Shown piece after piece: positions 2,374 to 53,521 of a stretch of 64,000 nt of DNA. Position numbers and translations under genes: made by a program. Location of the stretch: sequence record OQ973471.1; one strand, written 5' to 3'. Below the pieces are notes generated by a model, which searched no databases, was not told the DNA's origin, and was given only the letters and a program-made list of their open reading frames with translations. Source of the DNA: Escherichia phage AV101. The stretch's first letter is position 1. Each line of letters begins with the position of its first letter.

Positions 2374-4575
2374 TTAGATTTTGATTTCTTTCTCTGTCAG
2401 TTCGGCAGTGACCTTGTACTTCACGCCATCCACTTCAACTTCCATGGTGGACTCTTCCAGGTCGAGGTCGGTGAACCAGCCGTGGCCAGCAACGATACCA
2501 TACACCACTTTAGACAGTGTCTTGTTCAGGGCACGGACTTCGGTGATGGCCGCCTTGGCAGCAGCGTCGATCCAGTTTTCGATCAGCTGTTTCTGTAAGG
2601 CTTCAGGCACGGCAGTGATCATAGGAGACTTCACGAATGCTTCGTACTCTTTCAGAGCATTGGCGATGAACAAGTCACCAGCATTGAGTTTCTTGTTCTC
2701 GGCAATCTTCTTCTGTACCGCTGCGATAGACGGTAGAGATGAAGCGCCAGCGATCTTCACGTTCAGCTCACGGCTCATGTAGAAGTCGGTAGACTCTTTG
2801 GTCTCAGTCTTCGGTGAGAAGCCGTAATCGCGGATGCCGTAGGAGGACAGGAACTCGGCCGCCTCAGCGCCGTACTGTACTGCCAGGCCTTTGGCGTTAC
2901 CCTTACCAACCAGGGCGTCTCGATAGAACTTCAGCACCTTCTGCTTGCCTTTCAGGGCTTCCAGACGGACATTATCCGCAAAGAACTGAGCAGCACTGAT
3001 GTTCTTGACCATGGCGCGGTTGACCAGCGGTACGCTTTCCAGGTTCAGGACAAACACTTCCGGACCACCAAACACGTGGACGCCCATTTCGATCAGCTTT
3101 TGTACAACTTCGATATCAGCCTTGAACGGCAGAGTCTTCACGTTAATGATACCGTCTTTGACGATGGTGTAGTTGCGCCACTGGAAGGTGTCCAGTTCTT
3201 CAGGTAGACCAAACTTCTTCTGTGCGAATTCAGGCACAGCCACAGTACCGTGTTGAATTGTACGCACACTGATGTTCGGGCGCTCGGAGTTATAGACCAA
3301 ATCACTGATTGGCACAACACCCAGATCGTTGGTAGGTTCGAACGTCGGGTTCCACTCTTCGTGTTCTGCCAGCTTGAGAGCCAGGGCTTTACGCTCTTCT
3401 TTGGACTGAGCATTCGCGATCTGTTCTGCCAGCTTGTCTTCGGTGTCGTCGGTTTTCTGCACAGTACCGCGCCCGATACTCTTATAGGAGAACATCGGAT
3501 GCTTGGTAGCAACAGGCACACCAGCTTCAGCCAGGTACGTCAGCACATCAACGACGGTCGTCGCATCTTCAGCCGGAACCAGGTCATAGTCAATACCGTC
3601 AACACCGCGCAGCTGGTCGTCAACGATGGCCTGGGTCAGATCGTTCTTGATGTTGGAATAGTCCTGCTTGGTGAAGCAGTTGCTGTACTGTTTGATGAAG
3701 CGGACGTCGCCCGTCTTCTTCAGCGCAGCCCAAACCAGATCTGCGTCCATAGTGTGTACACCGTAGAACGCCAGCACGTATGCCGCCTGGATGTCCGTCA
3801 GGCTATCCATCTGGTCGATCATGTTAGGGTTTACAACCCACAGCTTGGTGACGCTCTCAGGGATGCTCACATAGCCGACCGGGTGAGAGTCATCGTCCTG
3901 TACTGCCAGCACGGTTGCCACACCGTTTTCGACGTAGATGGCATGGGTGTAGATGACTGGGACATCAACAACCACCTTCGGCACTGAAGACTTCAGTACG
4001 TTTTCCAGCTCGGTCTGATATTCGGTCTGGCCTTCGGCAAACACGTGAGTCGCGCCAGAGCGCTCGGACATCAGAGCCAGCAGTTCGCGGTTACAGTGCC
4101 AGCCGTATTCGATAAATGTAATGTTATCGAAAGCAAATGGCAGGGTCTCAGCAACCAGTAGAATTTCGTTGGTACGCCAGCAGTTGTCATACCCGTCAGT
4201 CATAAATGCCAGGTTGTTGACGTAGCCAGGTTTCTTCAGGTCACGCGCAGTATCCATCGCCAGTTTCAATGGCTCAACGAAACCAGTACAGCCGGATGGT
4301 TGCAGGAAACGGTCGATCAGTTTGTTCAGCTCGCTCAGGTCAGACGCAGCACTAACCTGGCGGCCAGCGAACACAGTACCAAAGTCGCCTTTGGAGGAGA
4401 AATACAGAACGCTCACAGTGTCTTCCGGCTTCACCAGGGATGGCAGGTTCTCCTTCAGGTGCTTGCGGACTTCAGGGAGCGCACGGTACATAGAGCCGGA
4501 AATGTCTACAACGATTACATGGTTGGACGGAGCAGCAGTCGCAACCGCATTCTTAAATTCTAATGATTCAATCAT
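2374..4575 (-). CDS. von Willebrand factor A (vWA) domain protein, about 733 aa
   Basis: N-terminal MIDAS-type motif VIVVDISGSMY (DxSxS) with downstream T/D positions; start taken at MIESLEF with AAGAGAA upstream; about 530 aa of unassigned C-terminal sequence. Confidence 0.6.
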   Translation of the reverse strand: MIESLEFKNAVATAAPSNHVIVVDISGSMYRALPEVRKHLKENLPSLVKPEDTVSVLYFSSKGDFGTVFAGRQVSAASDLSELNKLIDRFLQPSGCTGFVEPLKLAMDTARDLKKPGYVNNLAFMTDGYDNCWRTNEILLVAETLPFAFDNITFIEYGWHCNRELLALMSERSGATHVFAEGQTEYQTELENVLKSSVPKVVVDVPVIYTHAIYVENGVATVLAVQDDDSHPVGYVSIPESVTKLWVVNPNMIDQMDSLTDIQAAYVLAFYGVHTMDADLVWAALKKTGDVRFIKQYSNCFTKQDYSNIKNDLTQAIVDDQLRGVDGIDYDLVPAEDATTVVDVLTYLAEAGVPVATKHPMFSYKSIGRGTVQKTDDTEDKLAEQIANAQSKEERKALALKLAEHEEWNPTFEPTNDLGVVPISDLVYNSERPNISVRTIQHGTVAVPEFAQKKFGLPEELDTFQWRNYTIVKDGIINVKTLPFKADIEVVQKLIEMGVHVFGGPEVFVLNLESVPLVNRAMVKNISAAQFFADNVRLEALKGKQKVLKFYRDALVGKGNAKGLAVQYGAEAAEFLSSYGIRDYGFSPKTETKESTDFYMSRELNVKIAGASSLPSIAAVQKKIAENKKLNAGDLFIANALKEYEAFVKSPMITAVPEALQKQLIENWIDAAAKAAITEVRALNKTLSKVVYGIVAGHGWFTDLDLEESTMEVEVDGVKYKVTAELTEKEIKI

Positions 4576-4783
4576 TGTTCTCTTCGCCTTGTGCGTAAGG
4601 GTTAAGTTCAGACTCATCAGCGGCTTCGATGCGCGTCTTTACAGAGTCCAGCATATTGTTGATAAACTCACGAGACTGCTCCAGCTGAGCCAAGAGCACA
4701 TCCTTTGGAGCATAGTTCTGAATGCAAGCCGGAATACTTTCAGACGTCGCCTTCAGGTCGGTAAAACATTCTTTCAGTATCAT
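4568..4783 (-). CDS. hypothetical protein
   Basis: 71-aa ORF with ATG start, overlapping the vWA gene start by a few nt. Confidence 0.4.
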   Translation of the reverse strand: MILKECFTDLKATSESIPACIQNYAPKDVLLAQLEQSREFINNMLDSVKTRIEAADESELNPYAQGEENND

Positions 4784-4885: not shown

Positions 4886-6550
4886 TCAGATTTGTGAGGC
4901 CAGTTCTGTCACCAGAGGAGCGGCACGGACACGCGCATCTTCCAGCGTTTGGGTGTTGAAGAACTCGCCATCACGATACACCAGCTGGTGCTGGTTGTCG
5001 GCGTCTTGCACCTGATCAAAGGTGATACCGTCAACCAACACTAGTTTACCCTGAGAGTCTTTAATGACTTTAAGGAAACCACGCGCAGACTTTTTAGTCC
5101 CGCCTTTATCGGTCTTCGGCTCTTTGAAGATCTCACGGAATTCACCGTTCACTTTACCAGCCGTGGCTTTCACTGCTGTGCCAGTACTGTCACGGGTGTT
5201 CATCTGGTAGGTGTAGGAACCGATACCGAACACCACGTTGATGGAAGCGAAGTTCCGGTCAGCCAGACGGCTAAAGATCTGGTCTTCACGCGACAGGGTG
5301 ATAGAATCACCGTAGATCAGGCCGATGTGCTCATCCAACAGGAAGTGCCCAGTTTCAGTCTGGGTGCCACCAAAGATCTCCCACAGGCGCTGGATAGAGC
5401 CGACCGCTTCTGAACGGCTGATGATATTACGGTCATCTGCCATCAGAGAGTTGATCGTGCCTTCGCCTGTGATCAGGTGATAGGTGTTCGTCTCTTCGAT
5501 GTGGATGACTTCGGTGCTGCTGGACACGCCGCTGATGTTCAGCGTAGCGCGGTCTTTGAACCCCTCGATACGGTAGCCGCCGACGATGTGCACAGGGTCA
5601 CCAGAGTCAGGGCGGATCACGACTTTACCATTGCGCGCCATGATAATGTCTTTCAGGCGAGGCAGATAGTCGTCGATGACCTGCCAGTAATCCCACGCAT
5701 CAGACACGATGCTGACGATGCCATCAGGATACACGTCCTGCACCAGGCGGCGGAAGGTTTCGAATTCGCCATCCTTCGTGCCCATACACATCACGGCGTG
5801 TTCGGTAGCCGCAACAGAACCAGCAACGACATAATCTTCGTCGATGTCTGCGCCATAATACTCTTCTACGAAGTCCAGGGCAGGGTTGGTGTCGGTGCCT
5901 TTGAAGAACACCAGATGACCGGAACCGGAAGACGCGGCGTCATGCCACCCGCTCATACCACGGAAGGAGAAGTCGTGGCCTTGGTAGTCGATGAACCAAT
6001 GGTCCGGTGATACTCCCGTAGCGAGGGCAGCTTTCACCATCAGTGCCTTGTAATGCAGAGCGATGGTGGCGTTCGTCATCGGCTTCCAGATCTCAGAGCT
6101 GAACACAGTCTCCAGATAGTTGGTCAGCCAGTAGAACTCCGGCAGGGTATTGAACATCACATACACCGGAACACCATACGGACACATGGTGCCTTCAGGC
6201 AGCGCACGGACTTCGATAGGCAGGTAGCCGAGGTCATGCAGGGCTTCAATATGCTCTGTGCCGACGCGGCCTGGACCCAGGACTTTGTTCATGCGACGGG
6301 CATACTTCTTCAGCACCTTGGTCTTCGGGCGCTGGAAGAATGCTTCGTCAAACAGTTCGTGGAACCAGGTCATGAAGCCCTGGATACCCCAGACCACCAC
6401 GCCGTTCTTCGGCAGGTGAGAGTTGAAAAGTTTGTTAGAGCGCGGAGTTCCGTTGGAGAACACCAGCTCACTGCCTTCAGGGAACTGATAGATGTGCCCC
6501 GATTTGTAGAAGTCGATCGCATGGATTGGGTCTAAGTGGCGCATGCTCAT
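4886..6550 (-). CDS. nicotinamide phosphoribosyltransferase family protein (Nampt/NadV-like; possibly Namat of an NAD+ reconstitution pathway)
   Basis: 554-aa protein with strong Nampt-family resemblance across its length (MSMRHLDPIHAIDFYKSGHIYQFPEG... GHDFSFRGMSGWHDAASSGSGHLVFFKGTDT); 4-nt overlap with the upstream PRS-like gene. Confidence 0.85.
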   Translation of the reverse strand: MSMRHLDPIHAIDFYKSGHIYQFPEGSELVFSNGTPRSNKLFNSHLPKNGVVVWGIQGFMTWFHELFDEAFFQRPKTKVLKKYARRMNKVLGPGRVGTEHIEALHDLGYLPIEVRALPEGTMCPYGVPVYVMFNTLPEFYWLTNYLETVFSSEIWKPMTNATIALHYKALMVKAALATGVSPDHWFIDYQGHDFSFRGMSGWHDAASSGSGHLVFFKGTDTNPALDFVEEYYGADIDEDYVVAGSVAATEHAVMCMGTKDGEFETFRRLVQDVYPDGIVSIVSDAWDYWQVIDDYLPRLKDIIMARNGKVVIRPDSGDPVHIVGGYRIEGFKDRATLNISGVSSSTEVIHIEETNTYHLITGEGTINSLMADDRNIISRSEAVGSIQRLWEIFGGTQTETGHFLLDEHIGLIYGDSITLSREDQIFSRLADRNFASINVVFGIGSYTYQMNTRDSTGTAVKATAGKVNGEFREIFKEPKTDKGGTKKSARGFLKVIKDSQGKLVLVDGITFDQVQDADNQHQLVYRDGEFFNTQTLEDARVRAAPLVTELASQI

Positions 6551-24725: not shown

Positions 24726-25049
24726 TCAAAGAATGATGTGTTCGTCGATATCGGACTGCGTTGCAATCTCCCAGCGGACGATGTTCTCGGTTGTGATGAA
24801 ATCACGGTTCAGGTGAGAGGCTGGTACATACACCATCGTATTGACCATGAAGTAGCGCTGCTCATTGTTCCAGGAGTCAACATAAGCCTCAATAAGGCAC
24901 ACTTCGATCACTTCGCCTTTCGGATTCTTCACAGTCTTTTTCAGATACATGACACAGCCCTCGGTAGTAGACGGGGCAATAATACCTCTCACCCCGTTAT
25001 TGAAATGTTCTTTTAGTTCAAGACATATTTGATCAGTCCACAATTCCAA
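24726..25049 (-). CDS. hypothetical protein
   Basis: 107-aa ORF; start uncertain. Confidence 0.4.
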   Translation of the reverse strand: MELWTDQICLELKEHFNNGVRGIIAPSTTEGCVMYLKKTVKNPKGEVIEVCLIEAYVDSWNNEQRYFMVNTMVYVPASHLNRDFITTENIVRWEIATQSDIDEHIIL

Positions 25050-26485
25050 ATCCTGACCAGCCCGGCTTCGGTTGCTAACTGGCTTTCTGTTTTGCCTTCT
25101 ACGTCATACCCCATGCGAGCAAATGAACCTTTTCTGAAACCGAATTTGTGCTCACGCATAAATGTGCCAGGCTTGTGATATTTGTAGTCTGGCTTCTGTA
25201 CTTCCTCTTCTACGAATCCGTGGGATAGGTAAATGTTGGACAACCTGCTTGCAACACACCTATCCCCAAAGGAATAGATTTTGGTGTCGGCAAATTTTCT
25301 TCTGAAGTGTGAAAGAAGTTTACTGAATGCCCCGTGGCAATCATTAGAGGCAAATCTGACTAATTCCAGGCCATCTTTCCTTTTAGTGAATAGCATCACG
25401 GCTTGTATGACCCCACTCTTGTCAATTAACGATAAATGGTGGGTAGAAGAAACGGAACCTTGTATGTGGTGGTTGTCTAAAAACTCCCTCAAGCCGCTTA
25501 TATTCCCCCAAACGACTTTGTGTTGGCGAGCATATGACGCAGGCGTTTTAATGCCAAGTTTAGCTTTCAGAAGAGATTTGACCACTTCCTGTTTCTCAAC
25601 CCATTCATCTTCCCAGATGTGAATCAACTGGATACCCTGAGATTCACATATTTCAGTCTTTTCCAGGTGATAATGTTTCTCTTTAAAAACTTCTGAATGC
25701 CAGTACAGGCCATTAAATTCAATCGCCAATTTGTGTTCAGGGCAATAGATATCCAGTTGTTTACCGGATAATATACTGTAATCAGAAACAGTGTTTACAA
25801 CTCCCATTGAGGTGAGAAACTCGGATATTTCCTTTTCATAAGAAGATTTCTTGTTCCTGATAGAACCATTGCTGAACAACGCACGTTTTAGTATGTTCGA
25901 GTTTTTCATAGGGTTGTCAACACCATAACGTTCTTGTAACGTTGCCAACGCCTTCTCCCTCACACCAGGTAATTGTAGTGTGGAGCAGCTTCCGTATTTG
26001 GATATATTCGAAGTCTCTATGACTTTCCGACCAATCCCACCTTTACACATAGAAACCTGATAACATTCTTCAGAACAATATGTTCTGTAATCTTTATTAT
26101 TGATGTAAAAGTTGGTTTCCTTGGAACACACCGGGCATATTTTCACGGCTCTATTGTACAGCCAAGCTGTGACTTTACAAGCCAAATCTTGTAGGGTGTT
26201 GTGGGTATTGGCGAACACTAAAAGGTCTACATTGATGTGCTTCATAAGCAGTTCAGATTTGCATTTTTGGATATCCAATTTGTTGTTCTTGGTAAACATA
26301 TATTTGTAGAAAAATTGGCGATATGATTCCTCGTCAGATAATTCATTCACTGCTTCAAGGAAACCTTCCGGGAGGTTCTTTAGGGTGTTCGATGCGAAGG
26401 TCTTGCAAGCATCTGAACAAAATTTCTTATCTTTCCTGGATGCTTTGAACTGTTCATGGCAGACACTACAGATTACCTGATACAT
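25013..26485 (-). CDS. putative free-standing homing endonuclease: N-terminal zinc ribbons plus PD-(D/E)XK (Vsr/DUF559-like) nuclease core
   Basis: CSVCHEQF..CSDAC and CPVCSKE..CSEEC ribbons; QLDIYCPEHKLAIEFNGLYWHSE is a PD-(D/E)XK signature; AT-rich; own GGAGGAGAA RBS and TATACT -10-like box. Confidence 0.55.
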   Translation of the reverse strand: MYQVICSVCHEQFKASRKDKKFCSDACKTFASNTLKNLPEGFLEAVNELSDEESYRQFFYKYMFTKNNKLDIQKCKSELLMKHINVDLLVFANTHNTLQDLACKVTAWLYNRAVKICPVCSKETNFYINNKDYRTYCSEECYQVSMCKGGIGRKVIETSNISKYGSCSTLQLPGVREKALATLQERYGVDNPMKNSNILKRALFSNGSIRNKKSSYEKEISEFLTSMGVVNTVSDYSILSGKQLDIYCPEHKLAIEFNGLYWHSEVFKEKHYHLEKTEICESQGIQLIHIWEDEWVEKQEVVKSLLKAKLGIKTPASYARQHKVVWGNISGLREFLDNHHIQGSVSSTHHLSLIDKSGVIQAVMLFTKRKDGLELVRFASNDCHGAFSKLLSHFRRKFADTKIYSFGDRCVASRLSNIYLSHGFVEEEVQKPDYKYHKPGTFMREHKFGFRKGSFARMGYDVEGKTESQLATEAGLVRIWNCGLIKYVLN

Positions 26486-26534
26486 AATTATTCTCCTCCA
26501 TATGGTATCTAGTATAACCTGTTCGATAATATGA

Positions 26535-26562
26535 ACAAATAAAAACCCCGCCGAAGCGGGGT
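26535..26562 (-). terminator. rho-independent terminator (UUCG tetraloop on the minus transcript)
   Basis: AAAAACCCCGC-CGAA-GCGGGGTTT downstream of the capsid gene. Confidence 0.6.
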
Positions 26563-26589
26563 TTGTCAGGGTTAAGGACAACTGTTCTA

Positions 26590-27924
26590 TTAGAACAGGC
26601 CTTTGATCAGCCCTTTACGGAAGTACACGTTGGTGTCCTTGGCGATACCATCCGCAGTCACATAGACCTGTGGATCCTGGTTCGCTGGGATCTGAACGAA
26701 TGGGTTAGCACAAATCCCGTAGCGGGTCTTGAACGCCATACGTGGTGCGAAGGTGGTTTCACCCTGGGTGCGGTACATTTCCAGCGGCACGTATGGCGCG
26801 AAGAAGATACCAGCATCCAGTGCGGTTGCACCTTTGTATGCCAGGGTGATGTATTCTGCTACTGCATACGGGTCGATGTAGACACGCATACCGTTAGACA
26901 GCACACCAGCGAAGGTCTGGCCAGTCGGATCAATCGCCAGCTTGGTGTTTTCCTGCAGAGCCGGAGCATAATCCAGCATGCCGGACATCGCCAGAGCGGA
27001 TGCTACGTTCGGGGAGCACAGAACACGGTTGCCTTTACCACGACGGGTGTCAACACCGATGCCGTTCGCTTCAACTTCCAGCATGAAAGTCATGTACTTC
27101 CATTTTTCCAGCGCCCAACGACCGGAGATGTCAGTGGAGATGTCTACGATACCGTTGGTGCCGAATTTTTTGAAGCGTACTGCGCTGAAGTTCATGGTGC
27201 GGATAAACTCACGGTTCATCTCTGCCTGAATTTCAGTTACCATCACGTCGGACAGGATGCTGTCAACGTCTTCGCCGTGGATCGCCATCATGTCCTGGCG
27301 CAGTTCGTGGCTGTAGTCAGCGTACAGGCCGCGAGACTTCGCAGTCACGGTTGCTTTCTGAACGGTGATACCGACACGTGCCCATGGGTTGGTGGTGGTG
27401 CCCAGCAGTTCAGCGTCGGAAGTTGACATGCCTTTACCGATGGTGGTGGTAGCAGCGCCGGAACCTTCGATCTCAGTCTGGGTAAAGCCAGATGGGTCGC
27501 CAGCCTGAGCAGTGTCGTCACCAGAGTAGCCAGAATCAGCTTCCTGCATGAACAGTTCTTTACGGGAATGTTGGGTGTTGGAGCCGCCGTCTGAAATGCC
27601 CTGGCGAGCACGCAGAGCAAAGATCTGACCGTCAGGACCAGACAGCGGCTGAACGCCGAAGAAGTCCATCGCGATGTTGACCGGAGCCAGACGTTTGGCC
27701 ATGTCGATCAGGACTGGCTGCCATTTGCCCACAGAGGCGTTCACGGAGCCAGGAGCGTCGGATTCGCCCAGGTTTTTGGCGTTCCACTCAGCCTGGTTTT
27801 GCAGCAGACGGACGGCAACGTTTTCGGCAGAAAGCGGCTGGATGCTTTCAGATTCTTTCTGAAGAACTGGCAGCCACTGCTCGCGCATTTGTTCGGTAAC
27901 AAGTTTCTTAGCCATGATGGTCAT
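26590..27924 (-). CDS. major capsid protein (T4 gp23-like)
   Basis: 444 aa; by-eye resemblance to gp23-type capsid proteins; position after scaffold and protease as in T4; strong terminator downstream. Confidence 0.75.
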   Translation of the reverse strand: MTIMAKKLVTEQMREQWLPVLQKESESIQPLSAENVAVRLLQNQAEWNAKNLGESDAPGSVNASVGKWQPVLIDMAKRLAPVNIAMDFFGVQPLSGPDGQIFALRARQGISDGGSNTQHSRKELFMQEADSGYSGDDTAQAGDPSGFTQTEIEGSGAATTTIGKGMSTSDAELLGTTTNPWARVGITVQKATVTAKSRGLYADYSHELRQDMMAIHGEDVDSILSDVMVTEIQAEMNREFIRTMNFSAVRFKKFGTNGIVDISTDISGRWALEKWKYMTFMLEVEANGIGVDTRRGKGNRVLCSPNVASALAMSGMLDYAPALQENTKLAIDPTGQTFAGVLSNGMRVYIDPYAVAEYITLAYKGATALDAGIFFAPYVPLEMYRTQGETTFAPRMAFKTRYGICANPFVQIPANQDPQVYVTADGIAKDTNVYFRKGLIKGLF

Positions 27925-35149: not shown

Positions 35150-37369
35150 TCACCGTCTCAGCCATTCTTCCATAGACATACCAGAGCGTTCATCATAAAC
35201 CTGAATTCCACCGAACCCTGGGATGTTCTCCACAGAGTGAGGATCTGGCGTCGACATCATACCTCCAAATGGTAGCATCTGTGATTCTTCCATCGCAGAC
35301 AACCGCCCCCTCATATCAACCGAGATGCTGGAGTTGGTGAGATCACTAAACCATTCTTGTTTCACCGCCCATGCATAGAGCACAAGAGGCATTACACAGT
35401 CATCATGACAACCATCATCGGCTTCATACCTTGTTCCAGTCCATACGAATGTACTGAGTTCATCTATCGTGTCCTGGTCATCTATCACCAGCATTTCACG
35501 TTCAATCAGGGCTTTCAGGTTGGCGCAGCCGTTTGTGCGCACCTTCTTGTTGGTATTGATACCAGGTTCAGGGCGGCGACCACCGATTCTCTTGCCTGTA
35601 CCCTTGGTATCTGTTGTGGTGAAGATGATCTCGGGATATTCAATTTCCTGGTATAGAATTGTGATTACCTGACCACCCACGTCGTTGTTAGTCTCGACTA
35701 GCATCGGGCACGTTCCATACTTCTCGCCCATATCGGCGATTGTGTACGCATACATCATTGGAGGTATCGTGTTATTTCGATACTTGGCTGCGATCTTGTG
35801 AGGATAGTCTGTGATGTCGATAATGGTCAGCACAGAATAATCCCCTTCAACACCCTTGCCTGTATCTGCGATACCCATATAAATGCGCTTAGGATCGTAA
35901 TCGTGATAAATCTTGGTGAACTCGTTCGGCTCCTGATACAGCTTCGAGGTCATCTTGTCCAGACACTTGGCAGGTATCAGTGATCCCACAGAACCACGGA
36001 ACTTAATGCCAAATTCTTGATCGAAACGCGCATCACCCAGCTTCGCCCTTTGTTTGGATTCCCAGTCTGGATCTTTGGTATACGTTGGAACACGATACCA
36101 TGGGACCTCTGTGAGTTTGAAGTCGTTGTATTGTGGGTGTTCTGGGTTCGCCTTGGTGACGATGTCGTAGAACAACCCGCGCTGACCTTTCGGCGTACTG
36201 GTCAGAATACAACGTGAAGTCTCTGCAGATGCAATCGCCGGGAATGTAGACTCCCAGAATTCAAAGTCGTTTTCAATGAACGCCACTTCGTCCACATACA
36301 GGAGCGATACAGATCGACCACGGATGGAGTCGGAAGATGTCGCATAGGCGTAGATCTTTGATCCGTTTTCGAACTCTATCAGCGTGGAACCGAACTTCTC
36401 ACAACCCTGTTGGAGGAAGAATGGCAAATCCTGGTATGCCTTGCGGATACGGTCTAGGATTTCAATCGCCTGCTTCTCTTTGTTCGCCAGTACCGCGATC
36501 TCTTTGTCAGAGTGGAACATCGCATACCAGAGCAGGAACGCTGCCACGACTGTCGTGTTGTGGCTGAGGAAGCCGTTGGTGTAGTAGCGCTGATCACTAG
36601 ATTTCACCTGTAGGTCATACATGTGATGCGTCTCACCAGTCTGCCAAACCTCACGGATTTCTTCTGGACCTTCTGACGTCATGATGTATGACCCGGCATT
36701 CAGGTCTTTGGCAAATATCTCCTTCATTTCCGGAGTGAAGAACATATGTTTGTCGGCCACGTTAATTCGTCGCCCGGTAACGGTGACAATAACGAATTCC
36801 GCATATTTCTTCGTCTTATGCGCTGCGATAACCGGAACCCAGCCACTATCGGATTGCACAAAGTAACGTTTGCCGAAGCGGCTGTCCACGAACTTGTCAT
36901 GGTTGCCAATGGTATTCAGCGGCACAGCGTGGTTGACGTCCTCGAAGCGGCTGTGAAGCTCCCCTATGGTCAGGAGCAACTGCTCTTGGCTGAGAGTATC
37001 GTAAACTGTGACAAGCGTGTCACCTTTTACACATTTCCCAGACTGACGAGCCTGGACGACCGCATTGAATCGATAGTCCTGGAAGTCATGGAACAACTGC
37101 TTCTGGTAATCGTGCATGTCAAAGAGGATGAAGCCTTTATCGATGGTCGTGATCTTGTAGTAGTTGGCGGCGAAGTAATGGGCGTCCATCGCACACTCGA
37201 CGAACTCCGATTCTTGTTCGTCGGTTAGCATCAACTCCACACGAGGAGCACGCACAGACGGCTTGCGCATGAACGTTTGGTCCATACGCAGTCTGACGTC
37301 TTCTGTCTTAAACCCCGTCTTGAGTGGGGCGTATTCTACATCACGCTTCTGATACGCCATTGTCTTCAC
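35150..37369 (-). CDS. terminase large subunit (T4 gp17-like) containing a mini-intein
   Basis: Walker A QSGK/T split by the intein; nuclease domain follows; 739 aa including 159 intein residues. Confidence 0.85.
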   Translation of the reverse strand: MKTMAYQKRDVEYAPLKTGFKTEDVRLRMDQTFMRKPSVRAPRVELMLTDEQESEFVECAMDAHYFAANYYKITTIDKGFILFDMHDYQKQLFHDFQDYRFNAVVQARQSGKCVKGDTLVTVYDTLSQEQLLLTIGELHSRFEDVNHAVPLNTIGNHDKFVDSRFGKRYFVQSDSGWVPVIAAHKTKKYAEFVIVTVTGRRINVADKHMFFTPEMKEIFAKDLNAGSYIMTSEGPEEIREVWQTGETHHMYDLQVKSSDQRYYTNGFLSHNTTVVAAFLLWYAMFHSDKEIAVLANKEKQAIEILDRIRKAYQDLPFFLQQGCEKFGSTLIEFENGSKIYAYATSSDSIRGRSVSLLYVDEVAFIENDFEFWESTFPAIASAETSRCILTSTPKGQRGLFYDIVTKANPEHPQYNDFKLTEVPWYRVPTYTKDPDWESKQRAKLGDARFDQEFGIKFRGSVGSLIPAKCLDKMTSKLYQEPNEFTKIYHDYDPKRIYMGIADTGKGVEGDYSVLTIIDITDYPHKIAAKYRNNTIPPMMYAYTIADMGEKYGTCPMLVETNNDVGGQVITILYQEIEYPEIIFTTTDTKGTGKRIGGRRPEPGINTNKKVRTNGCANLKALIEREMLVIDDQDTIDELSTFVWTGTRYEADDGCHDDCVMPLVLYAWAVKQEWFSDLTNSSISVDMRGRLSAMEESQMLPFGGMMSTPDPHSVENIPGFGGIQVYDERSGMSMEEWLRR
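36557..37033 (-). other. mini-intein (159 aa) in the terminase P-loop
   Basis: Begins CVKGDTLV directly after ARQSGK; ends MYDLQV...NGFLSHN followed by Thr +1 and TTVVAAF; too short to hold a homing-endonuclease domain. Confidence 0.7.
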
Positions 37370-46497: not shown

Positions 46498-48699
46498 TTA
46501 CTGGATAACAATACTACACTCCATATCTGAAACAACACCCGCATTGCTGTATGTTGTAATAGTCCATGATGTTGTTGATGTTTTATTAACAACAACATAC
46601 CGTCCAGTACCAGGTGAAGAAAAAGTGTAGCCCGCGCGTGACATATCAGTAGGGAAGTTGATGACCCAAATACCAACGGATGATTTAGTCGCGGTACAAC
46701 CAGCAGCAAGAGCAAGCGCACCAGAAGAGTTGATATTAACTACGCACGGTGAACTTACCAGCTTAACCACACCAGAGTCGAGAGTATATGTATCGTAAAC
46801 TGTGCCGATGCGGTTCATCCCAAGATATGTCACCGCAGAAGAAGCCAATCCCGCCCGGTTACGTAGCACGACAGACACCCCAAGACCTGAGCAGTTAGTA
46901 ACTTGCTGGTCAGAAACCATACCGGAAGTGGAACTGTATTGTTCAAGAACTGCGTCAACCGTGTTTGATCCGTTGTAGCAATTGAACGTTACATTTTCCA
47001 ATCTGTTTCTGCGCACGCTTTTCCCAAAATCAGACCTAACATTACATATACGGTTATATTGCCCAGGGGTATTAATGGTGACCATACCTCCACTGATAAC
47101 GTTATCTAAGCAGTCTGTTAAAGAAATTTGATGGTCAAAAAATCCATATGCGCTCTTGAAGTCGCCGTTGTTCTGCATGAATATCTGAACGTTTTCGATT
47201 CGGTTATTGCTGCACCCCTGTAAAGCCACCACGTGGTCGTTACCGTTAAATGCTCCATTGGAAATACTGGTAAACTTACCGCCGATGATTTTGCAGTTGG
47301 TGCAGCCTCTAGAGAATTTAATATTATTATTACCGCCTACGGCGCCATCAACACTCCCCAAAACGGATGAATTCATAACGCCCTCACAATCTATGAATTT
47401 AAAATCCGTGGTCGGGAACCCAGTGCCATCTGCGGATGTAGCATGGTAGTTTATTAGTAGCCCGTTTTCTGCGTACCCTTCAGATACATATCCACCTTTA
47501 ACACCTAGAACCTCCATATTCCCCCCGGCTTTAGGCTGCCCAATGAAGCGAGGAAATGTAATCTCGGGATATAGTGCACCAATTAATACAAAATTACCGT
47601 GGTTTGGACCCTTGAATCCTGTGTTATCAAATGTGCAACTATTGGATCTTACACCTACTCGACGAGAAGAATCTGATGCGCCATAGGCTGTATTACCCAT
47701 ACGTAGAGGGGTTACTTCTGTGGATAGCGTGGTAAAGTAAATACCAGAGACTTCGGTATAATTTCCTGTTAACTCCACTGCACCTTTTGTTTGGTCGAAA
47801 GATGACCCGACCAATGTTATTATACCACCGCGACCTATCAATCTACGGTTATCAAGATCACTGATAACATTACTTGATAAAGTCACATTAATGTCAATAT
47901 AAACTGTTTTATAGTGAGTAATCAGTACATATAGCAAAGAGCTTACATCGTCACCCTCAGCAGCCCATGCTGATATAAAAGTATCAACGTCATCCTCTAT
48001 TTTTTCAAGGTAAACAATTGTAGAGTCAATTGTCATGGTTTGATCACTTATTGACCCTATAACTCCAGATACTTCTGGCTTAATTCTGTAGATACCAGAA
48101 TCAGTATTAACAAATGACGTACCAACTGGAACTGTACCTCCAACCTGTGCAACTGATGAGATATCTAATGGGTAAACGTTACCGCCAATAACTTTATTTC
48201 TCATATCATTAACGTCACATCGAAGTGAAGCATCCCCAACACTAATCCACGCTCCTAAACCTTCTCCACCCGTTGACCCTGGAGTTGTGTCAGCAGGAAC
48301 TACTTTAGGCAGTACACCATCCCATCGGTACTTACCATCAGTAAATACAACCAGTTCATTCTTAGTATTAACTGTTACGCCCGTAGAAAATGATCCAGGT
48401 AGGGTTACATACTCTTCGCGGGTAACAGCTAGTGCACCCAAGTCCACATTACCAGCAGAGTGAACTAATACCCCAGTAGGACTAAGGCTTACAGCAGTAA
48501 CCCCTGAACCAATGTCAGCAGGTAGGGAATAAGCCCGTTGTGACACTTTGTCATAGATGACTTTATAACCGCTTAGTACAGCACCCACCGAGAAGTAAAC
48601 AACCTCGGATTGTTTAACCCCAAAGTGTCGGGCCACTGCTTGTTTATTGGTTAAGATTCCGGTTGAACCTTTACCACCTTGTGAGAACATTTCGTTCAT
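46498..48699 (-). CDS. tailspike protein (733 aa) with shared N-terminal module
   Basis: N-terminus (GVKQSEVVYFSVGAVLSGYKVIYDK...GKYRWDG) also found in the 648-aa and 1102-aa proteins; Gly/Asn/Thr/Ser-rich C-terminal body. Confidence 0.8.
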   Translation of the reverse strand: MNEMFSQGGKGSTGILTNKQAVARHFGVKQSEVVYFSVGAVLSGYKVIYDKVSQRAYSLPADIGSGVTAVSLSPTGVLVHSAGNVDLGALAVTREEYVTLPGSFSTGVTVNTKNELVVFTDGKYRWDGVLPKVVPADTTPGSTGGEGLGAWISVGDASLRCDVNDMRNKVIGGNVYPLDISSVAQVGGTVPVGTSFVNTDSGIYRIKPEVSGVIGSISDQTMTIDSTIVYLEKIEDDVDTFISAWAAEGDDVSSLLYVLITHYKTVYIDINVTLSSNVISDLDNRRLIGRGGIITLVGSSFDQTKGAVELTGNYTEVSGIYFTTLSTEVTPLRMGNTAYGASDSSRRVGVRSNSCTFDNTGFKGPNHGNFVLIGALYPEITFPRFIGQPKAGGNMEVLGVKGGYVSEGYAENGLLINYHATSADGTGFPTTDFKFIDCEGVMNSSVLGSVDGAVGGNNNIKFSRGCTNCKIIGGKFTSISNGAFNGNDHVVALQGCSNNRIENVQIFMQNNGDFKSAYGFFDHQISLTDCLDNVISGGMVTINTPGQYNRICNVRSDFGKSVRRNRLENVTFNCYNGSNTVDAVLEQYSSTSGMVSDQQVTNCSGLGVSVVLRNRAGLASSAVTYLGMNRIGTVYDTYTLDSGVVKLVSSPCVVNINSSGALALAAGCTATKSSVGIWVINFPTDMSRAGYTFSSPGTGRYVVVNKTSTTSWTITTYSNAGVVSDMECSIVIQ

Positions 48700-51551: not shown

Positions 51552-51575
51552 AGGCCCATTATCGGGCCTTTTGTT
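51552..51575 (+). terminator. rho-independent terminator
   Basis: GGCCC-ATTATC-GGGCC followed by TTTTGTTTAT. Confidence 0.5.
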
Positions 51576-53521
51576 TATAGCTGGCAAGTAAAGCTCAAGT
51601 CTATTGATGCATGACCTGTTATCAGATCTGTTATCTGAACATCTTCAGGAGATCCACTTCTGAAGATCTTTCTAAAAAATATTTTACCTCCAGTAATATA
51701 CCCAATAACTTCAATTAGGTTGGTGTCAGCGCGTATAGTATTATTCAATATTGTGAATATTGAGCCAGTGCAATCACCCTTGAATGAGCTTAGGTAAGGG
51801 GGAAGAGATATTGAAAACGCACCGGATCCAACGTTGCTTGTTATGTTGCATTCAATAGTTAACCTTCCTGATACGCTGCGCTGAGTCAATTCATGCCTAT
51901 ATACTTGTGAAGTATATGCGCAAGGTGCGTTTATGGTTGGGTTGAATCCAGTGGACTGAGGGAAAACGTAGAAGCTTTGTAAGTTACCACCAGATACAGT
52001 ATTATTGATTGGCGTTGCTGAACCAGAAAACACATACACACCACCATCTTCGATACCTGAAACATCAGAACTAACAGGTTCTCTAATGCTATTATCCGTT
52101 CCACTAATGTAGAATACCTTCCCATACTTAGGACCATCATTTTCATGAAAAAGGACTCTTGGGCACACCAAGTTGTTATTGAAACCAGATATTACATATC
52201 CGATCCCACCATTAGCTATACTTGCTGGCTGTGTTTTGTCAAGCTTATGTGGCGTGTCAGAATAATAATTAATAACGTTATTTGAACTACCACCAAGCTT
52301 TAAACCAATTAACATCACGCGTGTTGTTCTAATTCCATCTAACCCCCAGACGTGTGTGTTAACTATGTCATTTGCTCCGCTTGTAACTTCCATGCCGACA
52401 GGATATCCAACTACCGTTGTATTGATATACATACTATCAGAAGTACGGTGTAATATCCCACTAACGCCAGATGTTCCAAGCTGGTCTTCCGGTGCTACAA
52501 CTACTGTATTATTGAATTTCCACTCATAACCCTTTTCAATATTAATACCTCCATTTAGCATATTGAAAATTCTTGCGTTATTTATCACTGGTCCAACACC
52601 ATCAGTACCATAGATTCCAACAGCCGATATTGACGATTCTGGCTCAATATAAAGATTGTCAATAAGGACTCTATTTCCTGTTTGTATAGCTGTTATACCA
52701 TCATTATAAGGTGATCTCCATTTATCATCTTTTACTTCTATAACAACTGTATCAGTAAAATTCTTGGGTACGATAGACCCTATATTATGCATTCTTGCTC
52801 CACTATTTAAAACAAGACGCGATGTTATGCATGTTTTACCAATAAACAATACGGTTCTTTTATTTGTTGCTGACCAATCTAAAGCTTGCTGATTAGGAAT
52901 GGTATCATCATCAATACCATTACATTTAGCGCCAAATGATCGGTTTGTAATGCAATCAGTCAATACATCTTCAACAATTCTTGTTGAAAAACCTGTTGGC
53001 CCAAATCCTATTAATCCTGCCCCTGTTGGCTTAGCGAGGTCAGATCTTAGCGCCGCATCACCAACACTAACCCACGCACCAACAGCAATACCTCCAGCAG
53101 TTTCAGGGGTTGAACCAGCTGGCACTACTTTGGGAAGCTCCCCATCCCAGCGATACTTCCCCGTTGTATAGGTAAGTAATTCATTTTTAACATTAAGGGT
53201 AGCACCTGTATCGAAAGATCCTGGTAAGGTTACGTATTCTTCGCGGCTTACTGCTAATTCCCCAAGATCAACAGAACCCGCTGAATGAGTGAGGATAGCT
53301 CTTTTATCCAGACTTATCGCAGTCGTTCCTGAAACAATACCTGAAGGAAGAGAATAAGCCCGTTGGGTAGACTCATTATAAATTACTTTAAATCCACTGA
53401 GATCAATACCAGCAGTGAAATAAATGACTTCGTCTTCTTTGACACCGAAATTTCGAGCGATAGATTGTTTGTTAACTTCTATAGAAGTGGAGCCGCGTGG
53501 TTGATTGAATTGAGAAATCAT
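51575..53521 (-). CDS. tailspike protein (648 aa) with shared N-terminal module
   Basis: N-terminus MISQFNQPRGSTSIEVNKQSIARNFGVKEDEVIYF... parallels the 733-aa protein. Confidence 0.8.
   Translation of the reverse strand: MISQFNQPRGSTSIEVNKQSIARNFGVKEDEVIYFTAGIDLSGFKVIYNESTQRAYSLPSGIVSGTTAISLDKRAILTHSAGSVDLGELAVSREEYVTLPGSFDTGATLNVKNELLTYTTGKYRWDGELPKVVPAGSTPETAGGIAVGAWVSVGDAALRSDLAKPTGAGLIGFGPTGFSTRIVEDVLTDCITNRSFGAKCNGIDDDTIPNQQALDWSATNKRTVLFIGKTCITSRLVLNSGARMHNIGSIVPKNFTDTVVIEVKDDKWRSPYNDGITAIQTGNRVLIDNLYIEPESSISAVGIYGTDGVGPVINNARIFNMLNGGINIEKGYEWKFNNTVVVAPEDQLGTSGVSGILHRTSDSMYINTTVVGYPVGMEVTSGANDIVNTHVWGLDGIRTTRVMLIGLKLGGSSNNVINYYSDTPHKLDKTQPASIANGGIGYVISGFNNNLVCPRVLFHENDGPKYGKVFYISGTDNSIREPVSSDVSGIEDGGVYVFSGSATPINNTVSGGNLQSFYVFPQSTGFNPTINAPCAYTSQVYRHELTQRSVSGRLTIECNITSNVGSGAFSISLPPYLSSFKGDCTGSIFTILNNTIRADTNLIEVIGYITGGKIFFRKIFRSGSPEDVQITDLITGHASIDLSFTCQL

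Follow-up and report, generated by a model that had tools for sequence, protein, structure and literature searches.

A predicted class 1 mini-intein in the P-loop of the T4-type large terminase of Escherichia phage AV101

Inteins that interrupt the large terminase (TerL) of phages have been described before, and here we compare them with one found in a 64,000-nucleotide (nt) stretch of Escherichia phage AV101 (OQ973471.1), hereafter called the window, in which it lies on the minus strand at 36557..37033. Orthologues are annotated in Salmonella phages Maynard (Kuttervirus; RefSeq NC_022768) and Marshall (NC_022772) and were published by Tatsch et al. in 2013 (PMC3868846). The Maynard record has a 477-nt mat_peptide called "intein" with the note "intein from Cys110-Asn268," and Marshall has the same annotation; counted from the ATG, Cys110-Asn268 gives the same boundaries as those of the window's intein. 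The Maynard/Marshall element and ours have in common the host gene, the insertion site between a Lys and a Thr, the length of 159 amino acids (aa), the phage family, and the terminal residues, but identity between them is only 76% for protein and 71% for DNA. The announcement of Klebsiella phage Magnus also reports a TerL intein (PMC6763660).

For inteins, the position between the invariant Lys and the Thr of the P-loop has been called the "classic" site (Kelley et al. 2016, PMC5050341). The mycobacteriophage TerL1-a inteins are in the P-loop as well, but of Terminase_1 family proteins, whereas the protein considered here is of the Terminase_6, T4 gp17 type. Splicing was seen in a reporter for five mycobacteriophage TerL inteins, with sites b, c, e, f, and g represented, and it was argued that splicing is necessary both for generation of the active site and for complex formation; some TerL1 inteins at sites b and c have identifiable, active endonuclease domains (PMC5050341). 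The nearest solved structures and sequences are those of the VidaL, Cat (consensus atypical), and gp41-1 inteins (PDB 6vgv, 6dsl, and 6qaz; phmmer E value for Cat, 0.0065). These share with the window's intein a C terminus of the form ...YYTNG..SHN and a block B of the form (A/S)-x-x-H. However, they are naturally or artificially split and act by trans-splicing, whereas the window's intein is contiguous and is predicted to splice in cis; identity is only 17 to 25%, and VidaL is without cysteine, whereas the window's intein starts with one. The atypical split inteins behind Cat presumably include phage TerL inteins such as AceL-TerL. With an orthologue annotated and published in 2013 and a classic site of insertion, the element is already known and hence ordinary.

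The TerL open reading frame (ORF), 35150..37369 on the minus strand, is 739 aa long when counted from a GTG at 37369. The ATG at 37360, nine bases downstream of the GTG, is annotated as the TerL start in relatives and gives a precursor of 736 codons plus a stop (35150..37360, minus strand). Pfam finds Terminase_6N at residues 272 to 464 (E value, 2.9e-17) and Terminase_6C at residues 501 to 658 (1.2e-6). The DNA of the gene is 98% identical to the TerL genes of Escherichia phages YX22, LHE287, RPN242, and A221; for phages Ag3 and SW16-7, of the Ackermannviridae genus Agtrevirus, the figure is ∼87.5%. An earlier note on this DNA, written from the sequence alone, had taken the gene to be a T4-family large terminase, and the Pfam and nucleotide matches bear this out. 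Judged by its sequence, the source phage is a Vi1-like, Agtrevirus-like member of the Ackermannviridae, with Agtrevirus as its closest genus.

Translation of the minus strand from 36557 to 37033 gives exactly 159 codons (477 nt), CVKGDTLVTV...YYTNGFLSHN, flanked upstream by ...NAVVQARQSGK and downstream by TTVVAAFLLWYAMF; the plus-strand frame across the same interval is full of stops. The insert splits the Walker A motif between its Lys and Thr (ARQSGK/TTVVAAF, where the slash marks the insertion point). The N-extein (37034..37360, minus strand), residues 1 to 109, ends in ...ARQSGK, the first half of Walker A. The C-extein (35153..36556, minus strand), 468 aa, contains the rest of the ATPase domain and the RNaseH-like nuclease domain. 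Its first residue, the Thr of the Walker A GKT, is the +1 residue of the intein (codon at 36554..36556, minus strand). When the region was retranslated, the coordinates, the length, and all the motifs quoted in the earlier note (Cys1, MYDLQV, NGFLSHN, the terminal His-Asn, and Thr+1) proved correct to the base.

We compared the insertion site across 16 TerLs. It is uninterrupted in the T4-type gp17 of RB32 (SRQLGK/TTVVAIF) and in Vibrio phage D494 (CRQSGK/TTVVAAF), the extein of which is 55% identical, and this contiguity confirms the Walker A Lys and Thr as the residues that the insert separates. The DNA junctions are consistent with the empty site seen at the protein level. A metagenomic protein search was made with the whole precursor as the query (the 159-aa intein alone matched just 2 proteins). 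Five metagenomic TerLs, P0015 to P0019, are intein free and 73 to 85% identical to the window's extein, and all read ARQSGK/TTVVAAFLLW; P0016 is on a 118-kb contig with the same order gp13-gp14-gp15-TerS-TerL-sheath-tube-portal. The comparison with intein-free T4-family terminases that the earlier note proposed thus finds the 159 residues precisely absent from RB32 gp17, D494, P0015 to P0019, and many other TerLs, which read ...RQxGK/TT... across the site. In a rough neighbor-joining tree of the exteins (no bootstrap), intein-free and intein-bearing lineages are interleaved, and P0015 to P0019 are nested within the clade bearing 159-aa inteins. The insert is at the same position in every Ackermannviridae genus sampled, namely, Kuttervirus, Agtrevirus, Limestonevirus, Taipeivirus, Miltonvirus, and Vapseptimavirus. 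A compositional mark of foreign origin was sought and none was found, the GC content being 50.1% for the intein versus 49.5% for the whole gene.

In an alignment of 27 homologous inserts, 33 to 79% identical to the window's intein, the invariant residues (27/27) include Cys1; Ala93, Asp94, and His96; Asp140; and Ser157, His158, and Asn159. The Thr-Thr that follows the insert is nearly invariant. The block A nucleophile is Cys1 (codon at 37031..37033, minus strand). Block B, GRRINVADKHMFF, covers intein residues 87 to 99 (36737..36775, minus strand) and has His96, but the Thr of the usual TxxH is Ala93. Ala at this position is fixed in the family, and S or A is found there in the nearest solved inteins, Cat and VidaL; on the alignment, Ala93 is a motif variant in which the catalytic His is retained, and it is the only point at which the insert deviates from the canonical motifs. 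Blocks F and G, HHMYDLQVKSSDQRYYTNGFLSHN, cover intein residues 136 to 159 (36557..36628, minus strand) and supply Asp140, His158, and Asn159. Within them, MYDLQV is residues 138 to 143 and NGFLSHN is residues 153 to 159, and the whole stretch aligns with the C termini of the Cat, VidaL, and gp41-1 inteins.

Because Cys1 is present and is the sole Cys of the intein, the element falls into class 1 and not into class 2 or 3. Class 3 inteins, which have no N-terminal nucleophile and use a Trp-Cys-Thr triplet with a block F Cys, were considered and rejected on this ground; a split intein was also rejected, as the ORF here is uninterrupted. For a mini-intein we required that no LAGLIDADG, HNH, or GIY-YIG domain lie between blocks B and F and that the size be ∼130 to 200 aa. 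No endonuclease family was found within the insert in Pfam or PHROGs (and PHROGs gave no family for the isolated intein), and there are only ∼36 residues between block B and block F; thus, the insert is a mini-intein.

The AlphaFold2 model of the intein, made from the 27-sequence alignment, had a pLDDT of 95.4 and a pTM of 0.88 and is all beta with two short helices. When this model was compared to the PDB with Foldseek, the top 50 matches were all inteins or bacterial intein-like (BIL) domains, with a probability of 1.00. The best match was VidaL (E value, 9.6e-11; TM scores, 0.76/0.83), followed by the NpuDnaB, gp41-1, TFIIB, GyrA, and RadA inteins, and the model superposes on mini-inteins of 128 to 176 aa with TM scores of 0.65 to 0.8. 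The insert is thus predicted to have the Hedgehog/intein (HINT) fold. Chance likeness to inteins is excluded by the fold evidence together with the exact absence of the 159 residues from intein-free homologues. We are nearly certain that the element is a canonical class 1 mini-intein, with a HINT fold and no homing endonuclease, inserted at the P-loop GK/T of a T4-type TerL. The earlier note had likewise called the insert an intein lacking an endonuclease domain. Both parts hold, the first by the invariant splice residues and a predicted fold nearest to that of solved mini-inteins and the second by the size of 159 aa, the lack of a Pfam or PHROG endonuclease match, and the superposition on mini-inteins.

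Several points weigh against this identification. The intein profile search suggested in the earlier note did match the insert, but all of the scores were just under the curated cutoffs: Pfam Intein_splicing (PF14890), 29.0 bits (E value, 1.1e-6; cutoff, 35.8); TIGR01445 (intein_Nterm) on residues 1 to 100, 24.1 bits (cutoff, 24.5); and TIGR01443 (intein_Cterm) on residues 139 to 159, 13.1 bits (cutoff, 15.6). Each match is either significant by its E value or near the cutoff, and the sequence hidden Markov models (HMMs) are suggestive. A precomputed Pfam table assigns PF14890 to the 99% identical protein P0003, and a curated HMM threshold is a diagnostic, not a defining, property of inteins. 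In addition, we found in the literature no experimental splicing of this or any other Ackermannviridae TerL intein. Finally, splicing may have unusual kinetics, since Ala93 replaces the block B Thr and the +1 nucleophile, Thr, is the rarest of those used.

The scores below the intein cutoffs, and the presence of the insert in almost all cultured Ackermannviridae, would also fit a conserved HINT or BIL-like insertion domain that does not splice and is kept in the mature terminase. We consider this very improbable. The insert interrupts the GK/T of Walker A, is precisely absent in relatives with 73 to 85% identical exteins, and has invariant residues for both of the splice-junction reactions. 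The ATP-binding loop of P-loop ATPases depends on a contiguous GKT/S, and BIL domains typically have no requirement for a +1 nucleophile and are located in variable proteins. An insertion conserved in all relatives and without intein blocks, the result that the earlier note had set against its own proposal, is not what is seen: P0015 to P0019 are intein free. Since these relatives nest among intein-bearing ones in the extein tree, rough and without bootstrap as it is, we rejected the conserved insertion.

A second alternative, a decayed, inactive intein in what is either a pseudogene or an artefact of assembly, has a practically negligible probability. The replacement of the block B Thr by Ala could be cited for it, and nothing else supports it specifically; however, Ala93 is invariant in the family and is not a recent lesion. 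The 736 codons form one intact reading frame, the same arrangement is found in about 280 independently sequenced lytic phages, and the ratios of nonsynonymous to synonymous substitutions (dN/dS) given below are far below 1. The window contains only one TerL and one copy of the intein; there is no second TerL and therefore no backup terminase gene in these 64 kb. Conservation of the sequence effectively refutes the reading of a decayed intein.

If the intein is active, TerL would be made as a 736-aa precursor with its ATP-binding loop interrupted. Splicing would start with an N-S acyl shift at Cys1, assisted by block B His96, after which the hydroxyl of Thr+1 would attack the thioester to give a branched ester. 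Asn159 would then cyclize, with the assistance of His158 and block F Asp140, and the 159-aa (∼18-kDa) intein would be released. An O-N shift would rebuild the Lys-Thr peptide bond, yielding a 577-aa terminase with an intact ARQSGKTT P-loop. Because the P-loop is interrupted in the precursor, ATP binding should be impossible until splicing, and we infer that splicing occurs and that, as the earlier note had held, the TerL ATPase is inactive before it.

Across pairs, Nei-Gojobori dN/dS values were 0.03 to 0.19 for the intein and 0.004 to 0.07 for the exteins. The intein is under strong purifying selection, slightly relaxed relative to that on the enzyme. A plus-strand ORF of 160 aa (36746-37228), antisense to the intein, was considered and set aside as a mechanical artefact because it is the minus frame that is under purifying selection. 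In a tblastn search the intein was found at ≥60% identity in 278 phage records, and its presence in ∼278 cultured phage genomes means that the element is compatible with viable lytic phages.

This persistence of an intein without an endonuclease in nearly all cultured enterobacterial Ackermannviridae (∼278 genomes) would be explained if the intein were a conditional switch, its splicing responding to redox, temperature, metal ions, or the stage of infection and delaying the ATPase until proheads and concatemers are ready. The strong purifying selection and the location in the catalytic P-loop would also agree with a switch, and a regulatory role for P-loop inteins has been discussed by Kelley et al. 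(PMC5050341). However, purifying selection is expected of any intein in an essential gene if failed splicing is lethal and so is no proof by itself of a beneficial function. Moreover, close intein-free relatives exist, and their gene order matches over the stretch that was examined, and an internal disulfide trap is impossible because Cys1 is the only Cys. We regard a switch as unlikely.

The intein is patchily distributed at the DNA level. Sliding-window identity and informative sites mapped a recombinant tract of 423 nt (36654..37076; nt 285 to 707 of the gene) of Kuttervirus (Mutine-type) origin in an otherwise Agtrevirus-type gene. It takes in 14 codons at the end of the N-extein and ∼127 at the start of the intein, stopping ∼32 codons before the C terminus of the intein. 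Informative sites are Mutine-like at 105/110 positions inside the tract and at 67/379 outside it, and the maximum chi-square was 226 versus at most 22.3 in 200 permutations. DNA identity of the window's gene to that of Mutine (Kuttervirus) is 93.5% in the intein and 77.8% in the extein, whereas to that of SW16-7 (Agtrevirus) it is 77.4% in the intein and 90.6% in the extein. Because the tract starts upstream of the intein and ends inside it, the window's intein is a chimera, each of the two breakpoints falling in conserved sequence.

The tblastn identities to the window's intein are bimodal, 95 to 99% in 93 records, mostly from Kuttervirus phages such as Mutine, and ∼74 to 76% in 184, which include other Kutterviruses (Vi01 and Maynard) and Agtrevirus. 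The first ∼127 codons of the intein are 93 to 99% identical in DNA to those of Mutine and about 90 other records. Kuttervirus has two coexisting intein alleles, roughly 72 to 76% identical (about 72% in DNA); the exteins of Mutine and Maynard are almost the same (dN, 0.003), but the dN between their inteins is 0.16. Salmonella phage ISTP3 has a shorter patch of the same Mutine-type allele inside a Maynard-type intein. The Kuttervirus-type patch and the divergence between Mutine and Maynard show that intein alleles move between coinfecting Ackermannviridae lineages and genera without an endonuclease of their own and that they recombine between phage genera. This patch of allele exchange is what our analysis adds to the published element, and the addition is modest and incremental.

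Ordinary homologous recombination is the simplest explanation for the exchange. A more elaborate possibility, which we think rather unlikely, is directed gene conversion ("collaborative homing"), in which a free-standing homing endonuclease acting in trans would cut the site encoding the P-loop, or the rival intein allele, during coinfection. The patches in the window and ISTP3 and the two Kuttervirus alleles would then be products of such conversion, and the mini-intein would be effectively mobile. An endonuclease gene adjoining TerL was sought and not found, the neighbors being TerS and the tail sheath, and our literature searches turned up no case of phage competition mediated by an intein in terminase. 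The closest gene that resembles a homing endonuclease is a free-standing ORF of 522 aa at 25013-26581 (minus strand), ∼10 kb from TerL and immediately downstream of the major capsid gene (26590-27924); it matches PHROG 3339, "homing endonuclease" (2.4e-155), and the HNH endonuclease PHROG 559.

More-distant homologues found by tblastn are in Vibrio phage VAP7, Delftia phage PhiW-14, Campylobacter phages, and an uncultured jumbo phage. The inteins of the T4-like phages VAP7, PhiW-14, and CP20 (a Campylobacter phage) are 30 to 37% identical to the window's; those of VAP7 and PhiW-14 have the same Lys/Thr site and the same block F/G sequence, and the VAP7 intein is 179 aa long with a 20-aa loop insertion. 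The CP20 TerL intein is apparently a few residues upstream in the P-loop (..MQPRQ/C...SHN/SSKSTT), with Ser at +1, although the alignment there is uncertain.

The PhiW-14 TerL region (GQ357915, L014; 1925-4198) differs in that its intein, also at the Lys/Thr site, is broken 43 residues in by TGATAA (2390-2395). After the stops come a GC-rich terminator-like hairpin (GGGCGGGCC..GGTCCGCCC plus TTTT), a GGAG ribosome-binding site, and an ATG at 2441 in the same frame, and the GenBank annotation of PhiW-14 gp17 starts only at this Met. The arrangement resembles a naturally split intein in a cultured phage, with an IntN of 43 aa and an IntC of 121 aa, the alternative being a sequencing error. We found no published description of it.

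Larger elements are seen in other TerLs. P0054, P0069, P0084, and P0060 are 948 to 987 aa long and have inserts much larger than 159 aa; those of P0054, P0069, and P0084 begin with CV..DT directly after the Walker A Lys, and the insert of P0084 has a weak SegE-type GIY-YIG match inside it. The four inserts may be full-size inteins that occupy the same site and carry an endonuclease. In another group of metagenomic and Vibrio phage TerLs, P0052, P0056, P0059 (Vibrio phage VP-1), and P0088, the ATPase domain runs into a GIY-YIG domain (PF01541; approximately residues 500 to 590), and Terminase_6C was not detected in any of the four. This suggests that a GIY-YIG homing endonuclease or an intron interrupts TerL after the ATPase domain. 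Three of these proteins also have a P-loop intein.

In the window, TerL is followed by the tail sheath gene and preceded by the genes for TerS, gp15, and gp14; the portal, major capsid protein, and tailspikes are encoded farther along. Two minus-strand ORFs, 46498-48699 and 51575-53521, have the TSP1/Gp66 tailspike N-terminal domain typical of the multiple-tailspike clusters of Ackermannviridae. Genes for a NAPRTase-family protein (4886-6550) and a VWA-domain protein (2374-4617) are also on the minus strand.

Most GenBank records of this phage group label the gene "terminase large subunit" or "hypothetical protein," and other Ackermannviridae TerL records could take the mat_peptide split used for Maynard. 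The element may be of minor interest as a tool, since it is a compact mini-intein, with Cys1 and Thr+1, and a relative of the atypical split inteins derived from TerL that are used in protein engineering. Because the intein has its own recombinant history (93.5% versus 77.8% identity to Mutine for intein and extein, respectively), it should be removed from TerL-based phylogenies of the Ackermannviridae, which it would otherwise distort. For the biology of these phages, the element is a further example of the known preference of inteins for the P-loops of essential ATPases.

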